Shown here piece by piece: positions 3,001 to 9,000 of a DNA stretch of 16,271 nucleotides (position 1 is its first letter; each line of letters starts with the position of its first letter). Origin of the DNA: Candidatus Fraserbacteria bacterium (lineage in GTDB: Bacteria > Bipolaricaulota > Bipolaricaulia > RBG-16-55-9); NCBI GenBank assembly GCA_037442925.1, contig JBBIPG010000053.1:1-16271 (forward strand), in the 5' to 3' direction. Position numbers: made by a program.

Positions 3001-6000
3001 TCTGCTTAGCACACTGGGCGTCAACATCACTCCGCTGCTCACGGCTTTGGGCATCGGAGGCCTAGCCGTGGCCCTGGCGTTGCAAGACACTCTCTCCAAT
3101 CTCTTTGCGGGCTTGCACGTGATCCTCGCCCGACAGATCCATCCCGGCCAGCGCATCCGGCTCGACTCCGGTGAGGAGGGCTACGTCGTTGACATCGGCT
3201 GGAGAAGCACCACGCTGCGCACTCCGTCGAATCACTTGGTCATCATCCCCAACACGAAGCTGGCAGGCAGCATCGTCACCAATTACAACATGCCGGATCC
3301 GCCCGTCAATATCGTCATACCCGTGGGAGTGAGTTACGACTCCGATCCCGAGCACGTCGAGCAAGTGCTAAAAGACGAAGCAAACAAGATGATCCAGCAA
3401 CTGCCCGGTTTTATAAGAGATTTTGAGCCCATCGTTCGCTTCCAATCTTTTGGTGACTTCTCGCTCAATTTCACACTGATTGTTCGGGTGGAAAATTTTG
3501 ATGTGCAGTTTGACGTCTGGGGCGAGATCCATAAGCGGATCTTCAAGCGCTTCCAGCAGGAGGGCATTGAGATCCCATTCCCTGTCCGCACCGTGTTTCT
3601 CAAAGACAGCCCGGGCCCTCTGGGTAGAGCGAAGATCCAACAAAAAGAGGGCCACTGATCTTTTCTTTGCCACACGCTGGGGAGAGCGATTCTAGGGTAA
3701 GCGGCCCTCGTTCACGTACCTCGTCAGCTCGCTTACGCTGAGGTTCTCGATGCCCAGCTTGTCTAATGTCCTGCCGCGCCGCCAGTAATCCGTCCGATGA
3801 ATGATGCAGGAGAGATGAATCAAAGCCTCGATCCCGCGCGTGGAGACGCCGTAGCGCTTACCCAACGACGCCATCGGCACTAAGCTCATCGGGACGTCTT
3901 CAAAGATGTAGCGGTGTTCTAGGCGGTTCGGAGCACTGATTCCATAATAGCCGGGGTTGGCATGAACGGCCTCGTAGAGATCTGCTCCACTGGCATCGTA
4001 CGCCATCTTGAGCCATTCCATTGCCGTCATGGCTCGAATCCCCAAGGCCGCGGCAATCGTGACTCGCTCGCGGTCGAGGACCTCCAATACGCGTGCCGTC
4101 GAGGGCGTCACACCATCGATGTAGAATTGAAAATCGCCGCGAGTGGCTTCGATCCAACCGGCGTTGAGAATCGTCAACGCAGGATGGAAGATCGCGCCCA
4201 TGTTGTCCAACCCTGTCTGAAGCACATTTCCCCCATCGACAAACTGTGGATAGGCCTCATGGATGACATCCAGTACGGCTTGTGTGCGTGTGGAGGGCAA
4301 AGCGGCCAGTGGGACAGCATCTTTGATGCTGAAGATGTGGGCTTGGGCTGGACCAGTGGAACGGCTGGCATAGATGAAGGTCTGCGCTTCCGCTACGGTC
4401 ACATTTGCGGCGCCGTTGTGGTCTTTCAGCACTTTTGCGAATTCAATCGCTCCGCACGTCCGCCCTGGGTGCAGAATCACGATCTGACCGTCTCGCAGAT
4501 AAGCAGCGCAAGCCTGGGCGATGTCGCGGTGAGCGGATGAAGGCAGTACGACCATGAGCACATCGGCGAACTGAACTGCCTTTTGGATGTCGGATGTAAC
4601 GAGTGCAAGTTTGCCAAAACCTCGCGGACCACCGGGGTAACTATCCAGTTCGATGCCACGGCGAGCGCGGATGGTCTCGATGTGGGCAGCCGTGCGATTA
4701 TACAGTGCTGTCTCATAGCCCATCAATGCCAGATGGGCAGCCATGGCTTTGCCGCCATGACCTGCCCCCATCACCGTAAATCGAGTCTTCGTCTTTTCCA
4801 TATCGGATGTGTTCACCTCCACTTCGGGGAGTTCCGTGCAGACACTCATGGAGAATATTCACTCATCCCCTGGCAAAGGGCACCACTTACTTTGCTGCTG
4901 GGCTGGCCGTCCAGCCAAGACAACTCAAGAGGGAATCCGGGAAATACTTCCGCCACATGCGGTAATAGTATAACTCTTCTTTCGAGCGCAGTGTGACGCC
5001 GTGAGGAAGGGTCCGCTCCTCTTCGAATTCGCGATCGGACATCTCGCGTTCCGCTATCTGTTCGAAGACGAGCGCTGATCCGGCTCCGCGGGAGAATTTC
5101 TCTTTCGTACGCCACAGCACTTCCTCAGACAGCATACCCTCAAAGGCCGTTCGTAGCGCCCACTTCTCCACGCCATCCCGCTGCTTGAATTCCAGCGGCA
5201 AGTTGAATGCGATCTTGAGCAAATCGAGATCCAGATAGGGTTCACGCCCTTCCAGGCCATGGGCCATCGTCATGCGATCCACCCGTTGCAGATTGGAGTT
5301 GTGCAGAGCCGTAGTGATGCGTATGAGTTCGCGTGCGCGTTCTGGTTGGCTTAAGTCTTTCAGATAGTGATACCCACCGAAGAGTTCATCCGAACCTTCG
5401 CCTACCAGCACGACTTTCACGTATTCGCTGGCCAGCTGGGCGACAAAGTAATTGGCTATGGCACTGCGCACAAGGGCGAAATCAAACGACTCTAGGTGCC
5501 AAATCACTCTGGGGAGGATTCTTCGCATCTCCTGCTCCGTGAAAACGCGTTCATGATGCTGTGTCCCTAGAGATTCAGCTACAAGACGCGCATATGCCAG
5601 ATCTGAGCTGTCCACCATTCCAACAGAGAAGGAATGCAAACTCTCAACATGGGGACGCATCAGCGCAGCGGCGAGACTGCTATCGAGTCCACCGCTGAGG
5701 AAGACGCCCACGGGCACATCCGCTACCAAGCGTTTCTCCACAGCCCTTCGTAAAGACACTTGCAGCGCGCGTAGGGGATCAGCCGGGACTTCTGATGTAG
5801 TGATCCAGCGTTCCAGGTCGAAATACTTACGGAAACCCTCGCGGCTGTGGAACCAGTGCCCCGCAGGGAACTCGTGGATTCGCGCCCGTAGGGGCAACAG
5901 GGCTTTCATCTCTGAGGCGAAATAGAGGCGACCATCTCGCTCGGCGTAGTAGAGCGGCTTCACCCCCAATGGATCCCGAGCCAACACGAGTTCGTCGCCG

Positions 6001-9000
6001 TCGAGAAGCGCGAAGGCAAACATACCGTCAAAACGCTGGACGCACTCCGGGCCCTCGTCTTCATACAGATGCAGCACGACTTCCGTGTCGCTGTGAGTCT
6101 TCAGGTGATGACCCTTAAGAGACTCGCGTAACTCTCGAAAGTTGTAGATTTCGCCGTTATACGCGATCCAGAGTCGGCCGTCCTCATTGGTCATGGGCTG
6201 GTGGCCGTAGGCCACATCGATGATGGAAAGGCGCGTGTGGCCGAGTGCCCCTCTCTTACAGTAGCGAATGTCCCTCTCATCGGGTCCGCGATGACGAATC
6301 TTCCGCAGCAGCCTTTCAATGGGAACTGCGGGTTCGCGGGGTCTCCTCTCCAGTTGAAAACTACCTACCAGGCCACACATAGAGCGTTCCCCTCTACTTC
6401 ACTGAGCGACTACGTAACAGAATTGTGCGGAGCCGATCGGCCTCGCTCAGGGGTTTGCCCGTCATTGGATCAACTGCCTGGCATGCTCCGTCAACTATGC
6501 GAGTCATGATCTGACCCTTGGCCAGTGGATGCCCCTTGAGGTGAGGCGCGTCGAGAATGCCCAACCGCACGGCACGTGCCAGAGTCACGGGATCTGCCCA
6601 AGGATCTTTCGCCCTGGGAGCGGCGATCTCTTGAACTGCCGCTAGGGTGACCCTGGCTTCGGAGATGAGCTCGTGTTTGCGTTGCTGTACAACGGGGTCC
6701 GCGGTCATATCCGGTGCACCGCCCAGAGCGTTCTCAATGACCCGCCGGGCGATCTTGCAGCTTTGAATCAGCTCATCTGCGGTGGTGGCGTGATGGGCCT
6801 CTGGGAAACCCACGACGTGCACGATGTGGGGCTTTACAGCCATCTGCAAGTAGACGGAAGCCCCCAGATGCCCCTTCGCAAGATCAGGGTCTACCGGATG
6901 GCTTAACAACCCCGTGCGGGTCTGGCGGTAGATCCGGAAATCCTTGCTGGCTAAGGGCTCAGTCAGCTCGATGCACGCGAGAACCTTCGCAAGATCCATG
7001 CGATCCGAGAGCCCACCGGGGCAGTTGAACATGTACTGCGCGATATAGTCTTCAACACCCATCGCCTTCGCGTTATACGCCGATAGAAAACTGGCCACGA
7101 CGTAGATGACATCCGGAGCATCGCGCATTCCCCAATGGTGAGGCTCGTTCACCTCGACAGGAATGGTGCGCTCTGCGTGCCAGCGCATCAGCTCTTGATG
7201 CACTCGAATCGACTCTTCCAGTCCCAACGGGCCACGACGATCCAATTGGTTGAACCAGAAGAGCGATGTGGCACACCAAGCGTTCTGGATGGTATCGAGG
7301 TAGAGCTGAGCCAGTTTCAGATGATCATCGGTGCCGGAGTAGACGCGCAGGAGTGGGAAGTTACCCCGACGGCTGGCCTGATAGAGTCTTCTGTAGTCTT
7401 CTGCTGAACGAACCGGCACACCGCCTGCCCCTTTGCGCCGCTCATCTTGTCTTTCCGGGTGGAAGAAATTCTCTTGCGCATCTTGATCGATGCCCAACGA
7501 GATGACGTCAATGACCATCGCTTCTGCGATCCTTCGAATGCCTTCTTCCGTCTCTTCGAGAGTGGGGCGGCCGAAATGATGTCGAATGAGTGGGTACGGG
7601 GCTTTCCACTTCAGTCGCTCGACGAACGACTGCGGGTAGTCGCCCTCGTGGGCTTGTTCCAACAGTTGCCCACGCAGGTAGGCCATCACCTCGTCCAGCG
7701 TCTCCTGTCCGGAGAAACAGCGTTCAAAGAATTTCAGAGTCTTAGCGTGGTCAGCCACCGGGGGTGTCCCACCAAACACATAGCGTCGATCTGTTAAGCC
7801 GGCGCGCTTCACAGCCGCGATGAATTGTCGTAAGAGGGCTTCGCCAGTCTCGGGCGTGAGGCGATAACTCACGGCGACGAGTCCAGGGTCATGCTTCGTA
7901 ATGGCTTGCACAAAACTCTCGATGGGCACAGCCGCCCCGAGATAGACGGTCTCCCAACCCACTTCCTGGGCCATCCGCAAGAAACTTGCCACACCTGCCA
8001 CATGAGCATCTTCACCCAGTGCACCCGCGATGACCAAGTGCTTCCGCATGACGATCACCTCCTGCCGCTTGAGCTGAGGGATGGCTACCCGTTTGTGGGT
8101 AACGTTGGGTGCATACTGGCGATATCGATGGTGCCTACCACGATGGGGCCGACCTTCAAGGGGACACAGGCGAAGAAACGGATTCCCTTGCGTTGTGCCC
8201 GTTTCATGAAGCGGGGCTCGCCTCCCAGATAGGTCCGGATGATAGGCTCTCCGGTCTGTGCCGCGAGCCCAGGCAATCCTTCTCCCAGCTCATATTCGCG
8301 CTTGTCCTGAATCGGCTCATCATCGAGGCCAACGAACGCTTGTAGTACGAGCTTTCTGCCAGAACGATCGAGGAGGAAGATCTCCCCGAATTGAGCTCCC
8401 GTTCGCTCGAGGACGGTGCATAAGAACTTCTCGTGATCTAAAGCTCGATTCTTCATCCGCCCGAGTGACTGAGTAATGGCTTCCGCCATTTGATCCACGA
8501 CCGTTTGAACAGTGCTCTTTCGCCCGCGGCTAAGAGAACGAGACATGCCGATTCGCTCCTGAGTAGCTGCGAGCACGTTGCACAGAGAGACGCTCAAAAT
8601 GGGCCGTCCGCGCTGCATCGCTTCTTGGAGGGCTTTATCCAAATCGCGGTCGGAATAATAGAGCACAAAGTAGTCTTCGGCGTCCGTCACGAGATACGCG
8701 TGTTCCAGCTCCTGCAAACTGAGCTCATGAGACCGCAGATGTCGTAAGGCCTTCTTGACACTCTGCAAGGGCACATGGGAGTCAATCAGCTGGCGGATGA
8801 GTTCGATGGCAACGAGATCTTCAAAGCTGAAGCGCCTGGCGCTTCCATAGCCCTTCGCGCGTGCTATGCTGGGCGCCATCAGCCCAGAGCGGATCCAAAG
8901 ATCTAATTGTCGATAGGTGATGCGCAACGCTTTGCACACTTCCAGGGACGACCACTCATCCTGCTGTAGTTCCACGGTCTCGGTTGCCGTTGCCATGAAG

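Follow-up and report, generated by a model that had tools for sequence, protein, structure and literature searches.

The window analysed here is the 16,271 nt stretch of contig JBBIPG010000053.1 (positions 1–16,271), and the span studied, 3692–8049, is filled by three ORFs on the minus strand. As the preliminary description had it, these include a single-chain protein of 551 aa in which a B12-binding domain is fused to a TIM barrel (6394–8049; ATG start, upstream ribosome site), and an opine dehydrogenase (ODH, PF02317; 385 aa, 3692–4849, with an alternative start possible at 4801). An AsnB-type glutamine amidotransferase that retains Cys1 (497 aa, 4887–6380) is encoded between them, 13 nt from the mutase-like ORF and 37 nt from the ODH ORF. 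A gene for a MerR-HTH + GAF regulator (8085–8996, minus strand) lies 35 nt upstream of the mutase gene and is probably co-transcribed with this operon; at this type of locus it was otherwise seen in one genome only, of the same genus. A candidate sigma70-like promoter with an extended -10 (9041–9069, minus strand; 11/12 matches), overlapped by a 10-bp inverted repeat at 9024–9044, is only suggestive, with three sites found against 2.7 expected. On the plus strand, the gene for an MscS mechanosensitive channel (2561–3658), the sole MscS-like match in the genome, is convergent with ODH. A shortened SLC13/CitMHS transporter (237 aa, 1855–2568, plus strand) is also encoded; in relatives the full 587-aa TrkA-C form of this transporter is convergent with ODH.

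A Pfam search of the 551-aa protein returned PF02310 alone. Its predicted structure is of high confidence (pLDDT 94.4) and, in agreement with the fold assigned previously, the top Foldseek match was glutamate mutase (1cb7_B, E 3.4e-15, 18% identity), with ornithine and lysine aminomutases next; the ESM similarity of 0.94 to PF06368 clusters was also reproduced, as were the 188 family clusters at E ≤ 1e-30, although many clusters consist of fragments. The statement that sequence searches find only the B12 domain holds for the window protein, which does not reach the PF06368 cut-off, but not for its family: about 54 of the 120 homologues listed have a precomputed PF06368 match (hand count), and two of 40 scanned pass the cut-off. 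A sequence search found no solved structure of any family member. Within its own genome tblastn gives one copy and no second; a weak PF06368 match there lies in a 563-aa ORF that, in our reading, resembles the methylmalonyl-CoA mutase large subunit.

The B12-binding Rossmann domain (residues ∼1–130; 7660–8049, minus strand) carries D14-x-H16-x-x-G19. The DxHxxG motif reported for it is therefore correct in the window, but the family mostly has Cys at position 14 (167 of 193 members, with Asp in only 11), while the His of the cobalt-ligand motif is kept in 192 of 193. The GlmE-type TIM barrel (residues ∼135–538; 6436–7647, minus strand) gave structural Z scores of 32.5 with GlmE (rmsd 3.0, 376 residues) and of 30.4 and 27.3 with the aminomutases. 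Glutamate mutase (GlmS/GlmE with GlmL; EC 5.4.99.1; 1cb7, 6h9e) shares with the family the barrel, a His-on B12 domain and GlmE E330, yet has separate S and E genes, whereas the window enzyme is a single polypeptide that begins with the B12 domain. E330, described as the adenosyl-ribose glutamate (PMC4413051), aligns with E417, and Glu is present there in 192 of 193 family members. Lysine 5,6- and ornithine 4,5-aminomutases (1xrs, 8t0v, 3kow) share the barrel class, but their PLP lysines, K144 and K629 in the B12 domain, have no counterpart in the window protein, which has Ala27 instead. We take the aminomutase PLP lysine to lie 11 residues after the cobalt His, equivalent to position 27 here, where Ala (167) and Leu (20) predominate among 193 members and Lys is absent from the top residues.

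The invariant residues of the barrel are R156, H158, Q192, R235, Y237, A260, D270, R272, E299, N301, H304, R309, R378 and H411, five of them Arg. In a mapping onto GlmE drawn partly by eye and from a profile match that is weak (67% probability, E 5e-5), GlmE R66, R100, R149, E171, Y181 and H291 are replaced by H158, Q192, Y237, A260, D270 and R378, with E171 placed by eye. R66, R100, R149 and E171 are presumably the substrate residues of GlmE, E171 binding the amine; a search of the open-access literature found no source for these roles. The claim that the family has conserved active-site residues of its own thus stands, and the model supports a predicted single-chain enzyme of glutamate-mutase fold with a rebuilt, strictly conserved active site.

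In a distant clade the mutase is fused to GlmL, as a counterpart to that of glutamate mutase, and a BtuR adenosyltransferase follows in 4/4 loci; the family tree was built in quick mode with outgroups on long branches and is taken as unrooted. GlmL was not found in the window's own genome, which encodes PduO, nor in 99 other loci. Because of the GlmL fusion and the adenosyltransferase that follows it, AdoCbl chemistry is well supported; it had earlier been deduced from the fold, and its basis now extends beyond that to these genes and E417. We predict with high confidence that the enzyme is an AdoCbl radical isomerase; only about a dozen types of AdoCbl radical enzyme are known to us.

ODH adjoins the mutase gene at 167 of 179 loci, which are drawn from many phyla. 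In the closest loci a same-strand ODH was again found in 78 of 80, both misses lacking sufficient flank; among 99 more diverse loci, 68 have it upstream and 21 downstream, and the other 10 have none nearby. It does not, therefore, generally follow the mutase gene as first described, and in the window AsnB separates the two. Nor is the pair invariable at each locus, although it appears so for each genome, since each of the 10 loci that lack an adjacent ODH belongs to a genome with one in another place. Our recounts also altered two figures slightly: AsnB is present in 16 rather than 14 of the 80 closest loci (and in 20 of the 99), and the family is carried by 10 of 33 genomes of the order rather than 11 of 35. 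Within the phylum, PF02317 is found in 18 of 19 mutase genomes compared with 32 of 151 genomes overall, and 14 of the 32 ODH genomes have no mutase match. This one-way dependence, in which the mutase needs ODH but not the reverse, fits an ODH that supplies the substrate, and the tight link supports the opine or amino acid pathway proposed previously.

The family is not undescribed. Zhang, Rodionov, Gelfand and Gladyshev (2009; PMC2667541) predicted a B12 family that they called ‘always adjacent’ to PF02317, and placed D-Ala:D-Ala ligase and asparagine synthase in its neighbourhood. The N-terminal B12 domain, PF02317, Ddl/asparagine synthase and occurrence in Clostridia and Chloroflexi are common to both, and the two families are almost certainly the same, as matched by description rather than by sequences. 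Their prediction covered 11 genomes and, in the text accessible, made no glutamate-mutase assignment and gave no substrate class or regulation; it is the only paper on the family that we found in the open-access literature, and its supplements could name members. The family has been an orphan since then. Its range, given in the preliminary description as Chloroflexota and Bipolaricaulota, is far wider, with at least 10 bacterial phyla plus archaea among the loci examined. New here are the ODH count, the ODH substrate signature, the link to an assayed enzyme and the riboswitches described below.

The window ODH has R52 (NADPH), R130 and G218 (ArODH 111 and 198, for acidic amino acids) and the catalytic H222. 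It fits the acidic-amino-acid mODH class, with R111, G198, R35 and the catalytic His all matched, and belongs to the same subfamily, with the same signature residues, as mODH-45/47/49 (Telek et al., 2024; PMC10787698) and Arthrobacter ODH (1bg6). The R111/G198 signature is present in 166 of 167 aligned partner ODHs, and also in all three intact genes for the metazoan-type ODH, a distant form found in the GlmL clade. One partner enzyme, that of locus L077, is essentially mODH-45: a comparison by eye shows three differences in 369 positions. In Anaerolinea thermophila the gene upstream of mODH-45 is its mutase partner, as at L077, and Caldanaerobacter subterraneus carries another such pair (L148). 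In the available text of Telek et al. (PMC10787698), which presents mODH-45/47/49 as biocatalysts without gene context or physiological role, mODH-45 strongly prefers pyruvate and converts Asp (97%), cysteate (98%) and Glu (35%), with a Km of 21.5 mM and kcat of 0.76/s on Asp. Glu, the weakest acidic substrate, was converted by five of six mODHs (35–96%; mODH-48 only 2%), 2-aminopimelate and homocysteate were well converted and beta-alanine gave no product; oxaloacetate and 2-aminoadipate lay outside the screen (PMC10787698). The poor kinetics of mODH-45 on Asp suggest that the natural amine may be a compound outside the screen.

The AsnB-type partner shares the fold of asparagine synthetase B and beta-lactam synthetase (1ct9, 1jgt). 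Beta-lactam synthetase lacks Cys1 and has Tyr at the E348 position of AS-B; its substrate is an N-(2-carboxyethyl) amino acid, the product type that we propose below for the mutase. The window AsnB has neither of these two features, and the similarity of this partner type to AS-B (E 2e-88) far exceeds that to beta-lactam synthetase (E 2.5e-25). Partner-clade AsnBs have the motif LHNxNLQRVDR where AS-B has LHMYDCARANK, and lack the D384 position of AS-B while keeping E348; we count the loss of D384 in favour of the opine scheme below. Cys1 is missing in 21 of 43 partners, and the Glu of the GEG motif is present in all 42 loci-derived rows and in the window AsnB, where aligned.

In our best reading the opine, N-(1-carboxyethyl)-Asp/Glu, is converted by the mutase into an isomer that serves as an osmotic solute, and we put the probability that the substrate is the opine or its imine at about 0.64. 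ODH would first couple pyruvate with an acidic L-amino acid at the expense of NADPH; this step, whose product is N-[(1R)-1-carboxyethyl]-L-Asp or -Glu, has been demonstrated in vitro for mODH-45, which is near-identical to the L077 partner. The B12 enzyme may then bind AdoCbl His-on, with E417 helping to form the 5'-deoxyadenosyl radical, and isomerize the tricarboxylate opine in an Arg-rich pocket. We tentatively favour, as a doubtful but specific proposal, abstraction of H from the pyruvate-derived methyl and a 1,2-shift across the propionate (X-CH(CH3)-COO- to X-CH2-CH2-COO-), in the pattern of the mutases for glutamate and methylmalonyl-CoA, where X would here be the amino acid nitrogen, converting N-(1-carboxyethyl)- to N-(2-carboxyethyl)-L-Asp/Glu; a carboxyl shift would give the identical product. 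A PLP-free AdoCbl enzyme would thus possibly turn the alpha-alanyl into the beta-alanyl secondary amine of the opine. The direction should be downhill, and ODH would not be expected to reverse the product. Against this, to our knowledge, an amine that undergoes a 1,2-shift without assistance faces a high barrier, and we know of no clean AdoCbl precedent without PLP. In about one locus in five AsnB might amidate the beta-amino carboxyl, and the Ddl-like ligases found near the mutase at other loci might add further groups.

The main rival, which we consider rather unlikely, is glutamate-mutase chemistry on N-(1-carboxyethyl)-L-Glu, proceeding through an N-alkyl glycyl radical and acrylate to N-(1-carboxyethyl)-3-methyl-L-Asp, with AsnB amidation pulling the equilibrium. 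GlmE is the closest fold and reactions of this type have good precedent; the change from E171 to Ala260, in the by-eye register, leaves room at the nitrogen, and most mODHs do convert Glu. A D-glutamate-cyclase-like gene within the operon of two clades (L203–L206 and L005) hints at a glutamate skeleton, and counts against the favoured shift. Glutamate is, however, a poor substrate for some of these dehydrogenases, AsnB is present in a minority of loci, and the equilibrium of glutamate mutase favours the glutamate side. Moreover, the partner of glutamate mutase is methylaspartate ammonia-lyase rather than ODH, and this lyase was found in only 3 of 40 pair-bearing genomes and not in the window's own (94% complete), which also speaks against glutamate fermentation via methylaspartate. 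A supply of beta-alanine for CoA is disfavoured because the genome has PanD. We think it improbable that the mutase works before ODH, rearranging a free acidic amino acid such as 2-aminoadipate or another longer diacid, with ODH then capping the product with pyruvate. The high Km on Asp, and the fact that 2-aminopimelate and homocysteate are converted well, do suggest an unusual natural amine, and GlmE likewise devotes several Arg to just two carboxylates, but none of the amino-acid-binding residues of GlmE is kept and the dependence of the mutase on ODH is one-way.

More improbable still is a PLP-free aminomutase in which a pyruvate ketimine, made or held by ODH, replaces PLP, so that nitrogen migrates along the amino acid; alpha-glutamate would yield beta-glutamate and then, via AsnB, beta-glutamine, both known osmolytes. 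The missing PLP lysine, the position of S238 and invariant H304 at S162 and H225 of OAM (by eye), the frequent overlap or abutment of the genes and control by c-di-AMP would suit this route. Against it, free ketimines are unstable and are reduced by ODHs, the mODHs yield nothing with beta-alanine, and the lysine aminomutase alpha profile gave no match to the family. A methylcobalamin methyltransferase or other non-radical corrinoid protein is very unlikely. The top NCBIfam/PDB matches of the small B12 domain include methyltransferase corrinoid proteins and the Asp of DxHxxG is mostly Cys, but the barrel ranks MtmB (Z 15.0), CoFeSP (14.8) and MetH (13.9) far below the mutases, and the conserved E417, the GlmL fusion and the BtuR neighbour also speak against it.

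Returning to isomerization of the opine, the pair probably produces a solute for salt stress through an as yet undescribed B12 rearrangement, and the product may serve as a non-metabolized solute for osmotic and K+ balance. Of 168 loci, 19 have a c-di-AMP riboswitch no more than 210 nt from the first gene, nine of them Rfam-confirmed and in two phyla; no riboswitch was found in the window, and the c-di-AMP profile gave none in its genome. A DarA/PstA receptor is encoded within 5 kb at 12 of 179 loci, and at L207 MscS lies within the operon. Counting against a solute role, no such switch was found at 149 of 168 loci, the window included, MscS is within 5 kb at only 4 of 179, the GlmL clade looks catabolic, and some copies are located in polysaccharide loci. 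One clade may accordingly run in the catabolic direction, and some copies may decorate surface polymers. Six regex candidates for a cobalamin riboswitch were noted, of which the three checked (L009, L034, L188) had no Rfam match.

The link to the expressed and assayed mODH-45 narrows the candidate substrates to a few that are accessible by enzymatic synthesis and can be tested immediately. From this could come a hitherto undescribed radical rearrangement, together with a new osmolyte and a further branch of the c-di-AMP regulon. If the alpha- to beta-alanyl shift is correct, it would represent a class of reaction new to coenzyme B12 and would complete the route to an unrecognized, c-di-AMP-controlled compatible solute of anaerobes. 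The family would also mean an additional, uncounted demand for B12 in many anaerobes. One genome (G041) encodes a true GlmE alongside a member of this family.

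The 551-aa mutase-like protein (6394-8049, minus strand) is encoded in a row of four minus-strand genes, which opens with a MerR-GAF regulator (8085-8996) and continues with the mutase gene 35 nt further on, AsnB, an asparagine synthetase B-type glutamine amidotransferase (4887-6380), after 13 nt, and the opine dehydrogenase, ODH (3692-4849), after another 37 nt. A candidate sigma70-like promoter on the same strand (9069-9041) is a good match, although three sites were found against 2.7 expected. The nearest named relatives (74-77%) are in Bipolaricaulota, then in Chloroflexota. 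The preliminary description regarded the mutase as undescribed, but Zhang et al. (2009; PMC2667541) had already predicted the family and its neighbours. We found no characterization of the family in the open-access literature; it is a variant of the AdoCbl mutases with a probably new reaction, which is now directly testable.

The structure model (pLDDT 94.4) bears out the glutamate mutase-type fold proposed earlier, since both searches placed glutamate mutase, GlmE, first: Foldseek at E 3.4e-15, and a search of 48,161 chains at Z 32.5, followed on the same scale by lysine aminomutase (30.4), ornithine aminomutase (27.3), CoA mutases (about 21) and methyltransferase barrels (at most 15.0). Fusions of the mutase with an ATP-grasp domain, a peptidase M15 domain or a Crp regulator (P0131, P0135, L165:7992-10247 and L020:10869-13812) are possibly read-through artefacts.

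A genuine GlmE (L102; 1cb7 numbering) was then aligned with the family profile. R66, R100, R149, E171, Y181 and H291 are substrate residues of GlmE. The profile match is weak (probability 67%), yet it spans the full barrel length and pairs R66, R100, R149 and E330 of GlmE with H158, Q192, Y237 and E417 of the mutase; gapless registers drawn by eye pair E171, Y181 and H291 with A260, D270 and R378. Among 193 locus-derived proteins of at least 480 aa, not de-replicated, R156, H158, S184, Q189, Q192, R235, Y237, A260, D270, R272, E299, N301, H304, R309, M340, R378 and H411 are invariant, and E417 and H16 are each kept in 192. Because the counterpart of E330, which according to passages of two reports stabilizes the adenosyl radical (PMC4413051, PMC3958899), is kept while the substrate residues are replaced, the radical trigger is retained and the substrate pocket rebuilt; on strands 1 and 3 its arginines sit deeper by two residues. 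The mutase has no PLP lysine. The DxHxxG cobalamin motif has its Asp at residue 14 (8008-8010) in this protein, but 167 of the 193 have Cys there, which may tune the axial His in an unusual way. The protein falls outside glutamate mutase proper, but its cofactor end works alike.

An ODH had been said to accompany the mutase almost without exception. The two genes lie together on one strand in 78 of 80 close loci and 89 of 99 diverse loci (one duplicate dropped) from Bacillota, Actinomycetota, Bacteroidota, Ignavibacteriota, Armatimonadota, Planctomycetota, Chloroflexota and archaea; of the 10 diverse loci without the ODH, seven have ample flank. PF02317 occurs elsewhere in all 10 of these genomes, compared with 0 of 14 controls. 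In a phylum sample of 151 genomes, ODH was present in 18 of 19 with the mutase; the exception, a genome 80% complete, has a broken hit. Of the 32 genomes with an ODH, 14 gave no match to the mutase. Related loci are not independent of one another, but every sampled clade of a quick tree shows the pairing. At L105:3135-4736 the ODH is fused to a PTS EIIA-2 domain; ORFs in L091, L092 and L094 are similar (the Pfam check covered L105 only).

Hot-spring metagenomic opine dehydrogenases (mODHs) couple pyruvate with acidic L-amino acids, a preference set by R111/G198 (ArODH numbering), according to the parts consulted of Telek et al. (2024; PMC10787698). The window ODH has R130/G218 at these positions and the NADPH arginine R52, and both residues are present in 166 of 167 aligned partner ODHs, the sole exception being a misaligned fused ORF. 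Compared by eye over 369 positions, mODH-45 shows 3 differences from the ODH of locus L077, which lies 72 nt behind a mutase gene, so that the assayed enzyme is in effect a mutase partner. The same parts of that study report conversions by mODH-45 of 97% for Asp, 98% for cysteate, 44% for racemic aminopimelate and 35% for Glu, at most 23% with keto acids other than pyruvate, and a Km for Asp of 21.5 mM (PMC10787698), high enough that the natural amine may differ from Asp.

We treat the fold, the conserved residues, the pairing, the ODH specificity class and, in some clades, the regulation as established. From these we infer that the opine made by the ODH is the substrate of the mutase, which would rearrange the pyruvate-derived unit to give N-(2-carboxyethyl)-Asp/Glu. 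We favour this product tentatively, at a probability of roughly 0.3. Glutamate and methylmalonyl-CoA mutases linearize X-CH(CH3)-COO- units, and the one methyl of the opine sits in such a unit; the shift would also use the fixed keto acid of the ODH, tolerate its variable amine, run downhill and get by without a third enzyme, which most loci lack. The weak point of this reading is chemical, as amine migration without PLP is hard; NosL-type carboxyl-radical migration is an alternative path to the same product. Glutamate mutase chemistry on the Glu-opine, the main rival, would be chemically safer; it would, however, go uphill and depend on the least well converted ODH substrate, and we rate it somewhat less probable. 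Methylaspartate ammonia-lyase is rare (3 of 40 pair-bearing genomes), which argues against a fermentation role.

Support for AdoCbl separate from the fold comes from one distant clade, in which the mutase is fused to GlmL and a BtuR adenosyltransferase gene follows in 4/4 loci. The source genome (94% complete) has PduO, and BtuR and GlmL were not found in it. These fusions (L203-L206, in genomes G027, G081, G030 and G108; 1,218-1,234 aa) lie in the order GntR, D-glutamate-cyclase-like gene, metazoan-type octopine dehydrogenase, fusion, BtuR, with peptide ABC transporters also among the neighbours. The dehydrogenase resembles scallop 3c7a (E 2e-71) and has the R111/G198 signature, and the clade is a bacterial home of animal-type opine dehydrogenases; the L204 gene looks internally deleted. 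A D-glutamate-cyclase-like gene also lies inside the L005 operon. In the divergent L107-L123 clade (620 aa; upstream ODH in 13 of 17), several members adjoin polysaccharide genes, and L107, L121 and L123 look like parts of polysaccharide loci. Together with the neighbours of the GlmL clade, this context counts against one single role.

Of the 168 loci with sufficient sequence upstream, 19 (17 Bacillota, two Chloroflexota) have a c-di-AMP riboswitch no more than 210 nt from the first gene, and nine of these riboswitches were confirmed by Rfam; none was found in the window. Passages of PMC7266159 link this riboswitch to potassium transport, the response to osmotic stress and remodelling of the cell wall. 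Within 5 kb, the 179 loci include DUF5698 (18), the c-di-AMP receptor DarA (12), Ddl-like ligases (11), DUF389 (9), MscS (4) and SLC13-TrkA-C (3). The MscS-like gene convergent with the window ODH is the only one in its genome.

AsnB occurs in 16 of 80 close loci, a correction to the 14 of the preliminary description, whose figures in general reproduced closely, and in 20 of 99 diverse loci. The partner AsnBs form one clade that lacks the AS-B D384 position and has E348; Cys1 is absent in 21 of 43. We rejected their assignment as beta-lactam synthetases, E348 being kept. Locus L020 holds both a Cys-less and a Cys-bearing AsnB.

Upstream of the operon, 9112-13779 contains a CPA2 cation/H+ antiporter gene on the same strand and a divergent aroF-aroA-aroE operon. 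An IS5-family transposase is split over two overlapping ORFs (732-1531) between 11-nt inverted repeats (734-744 and 1566-1576); the flanking ORFs (249-686 and 1600-1851, within 123-1851) have no Pfam match and, judged by eye, may be remnants of a restriction-modification locus. The lower-GC stretch 13833-16225, with a tRNA, then an integrase fragment, an RNase H-like ORF, a Phd/PIN toxin-antitoxin pair and an unknown ORF, is a decayed integrated element.
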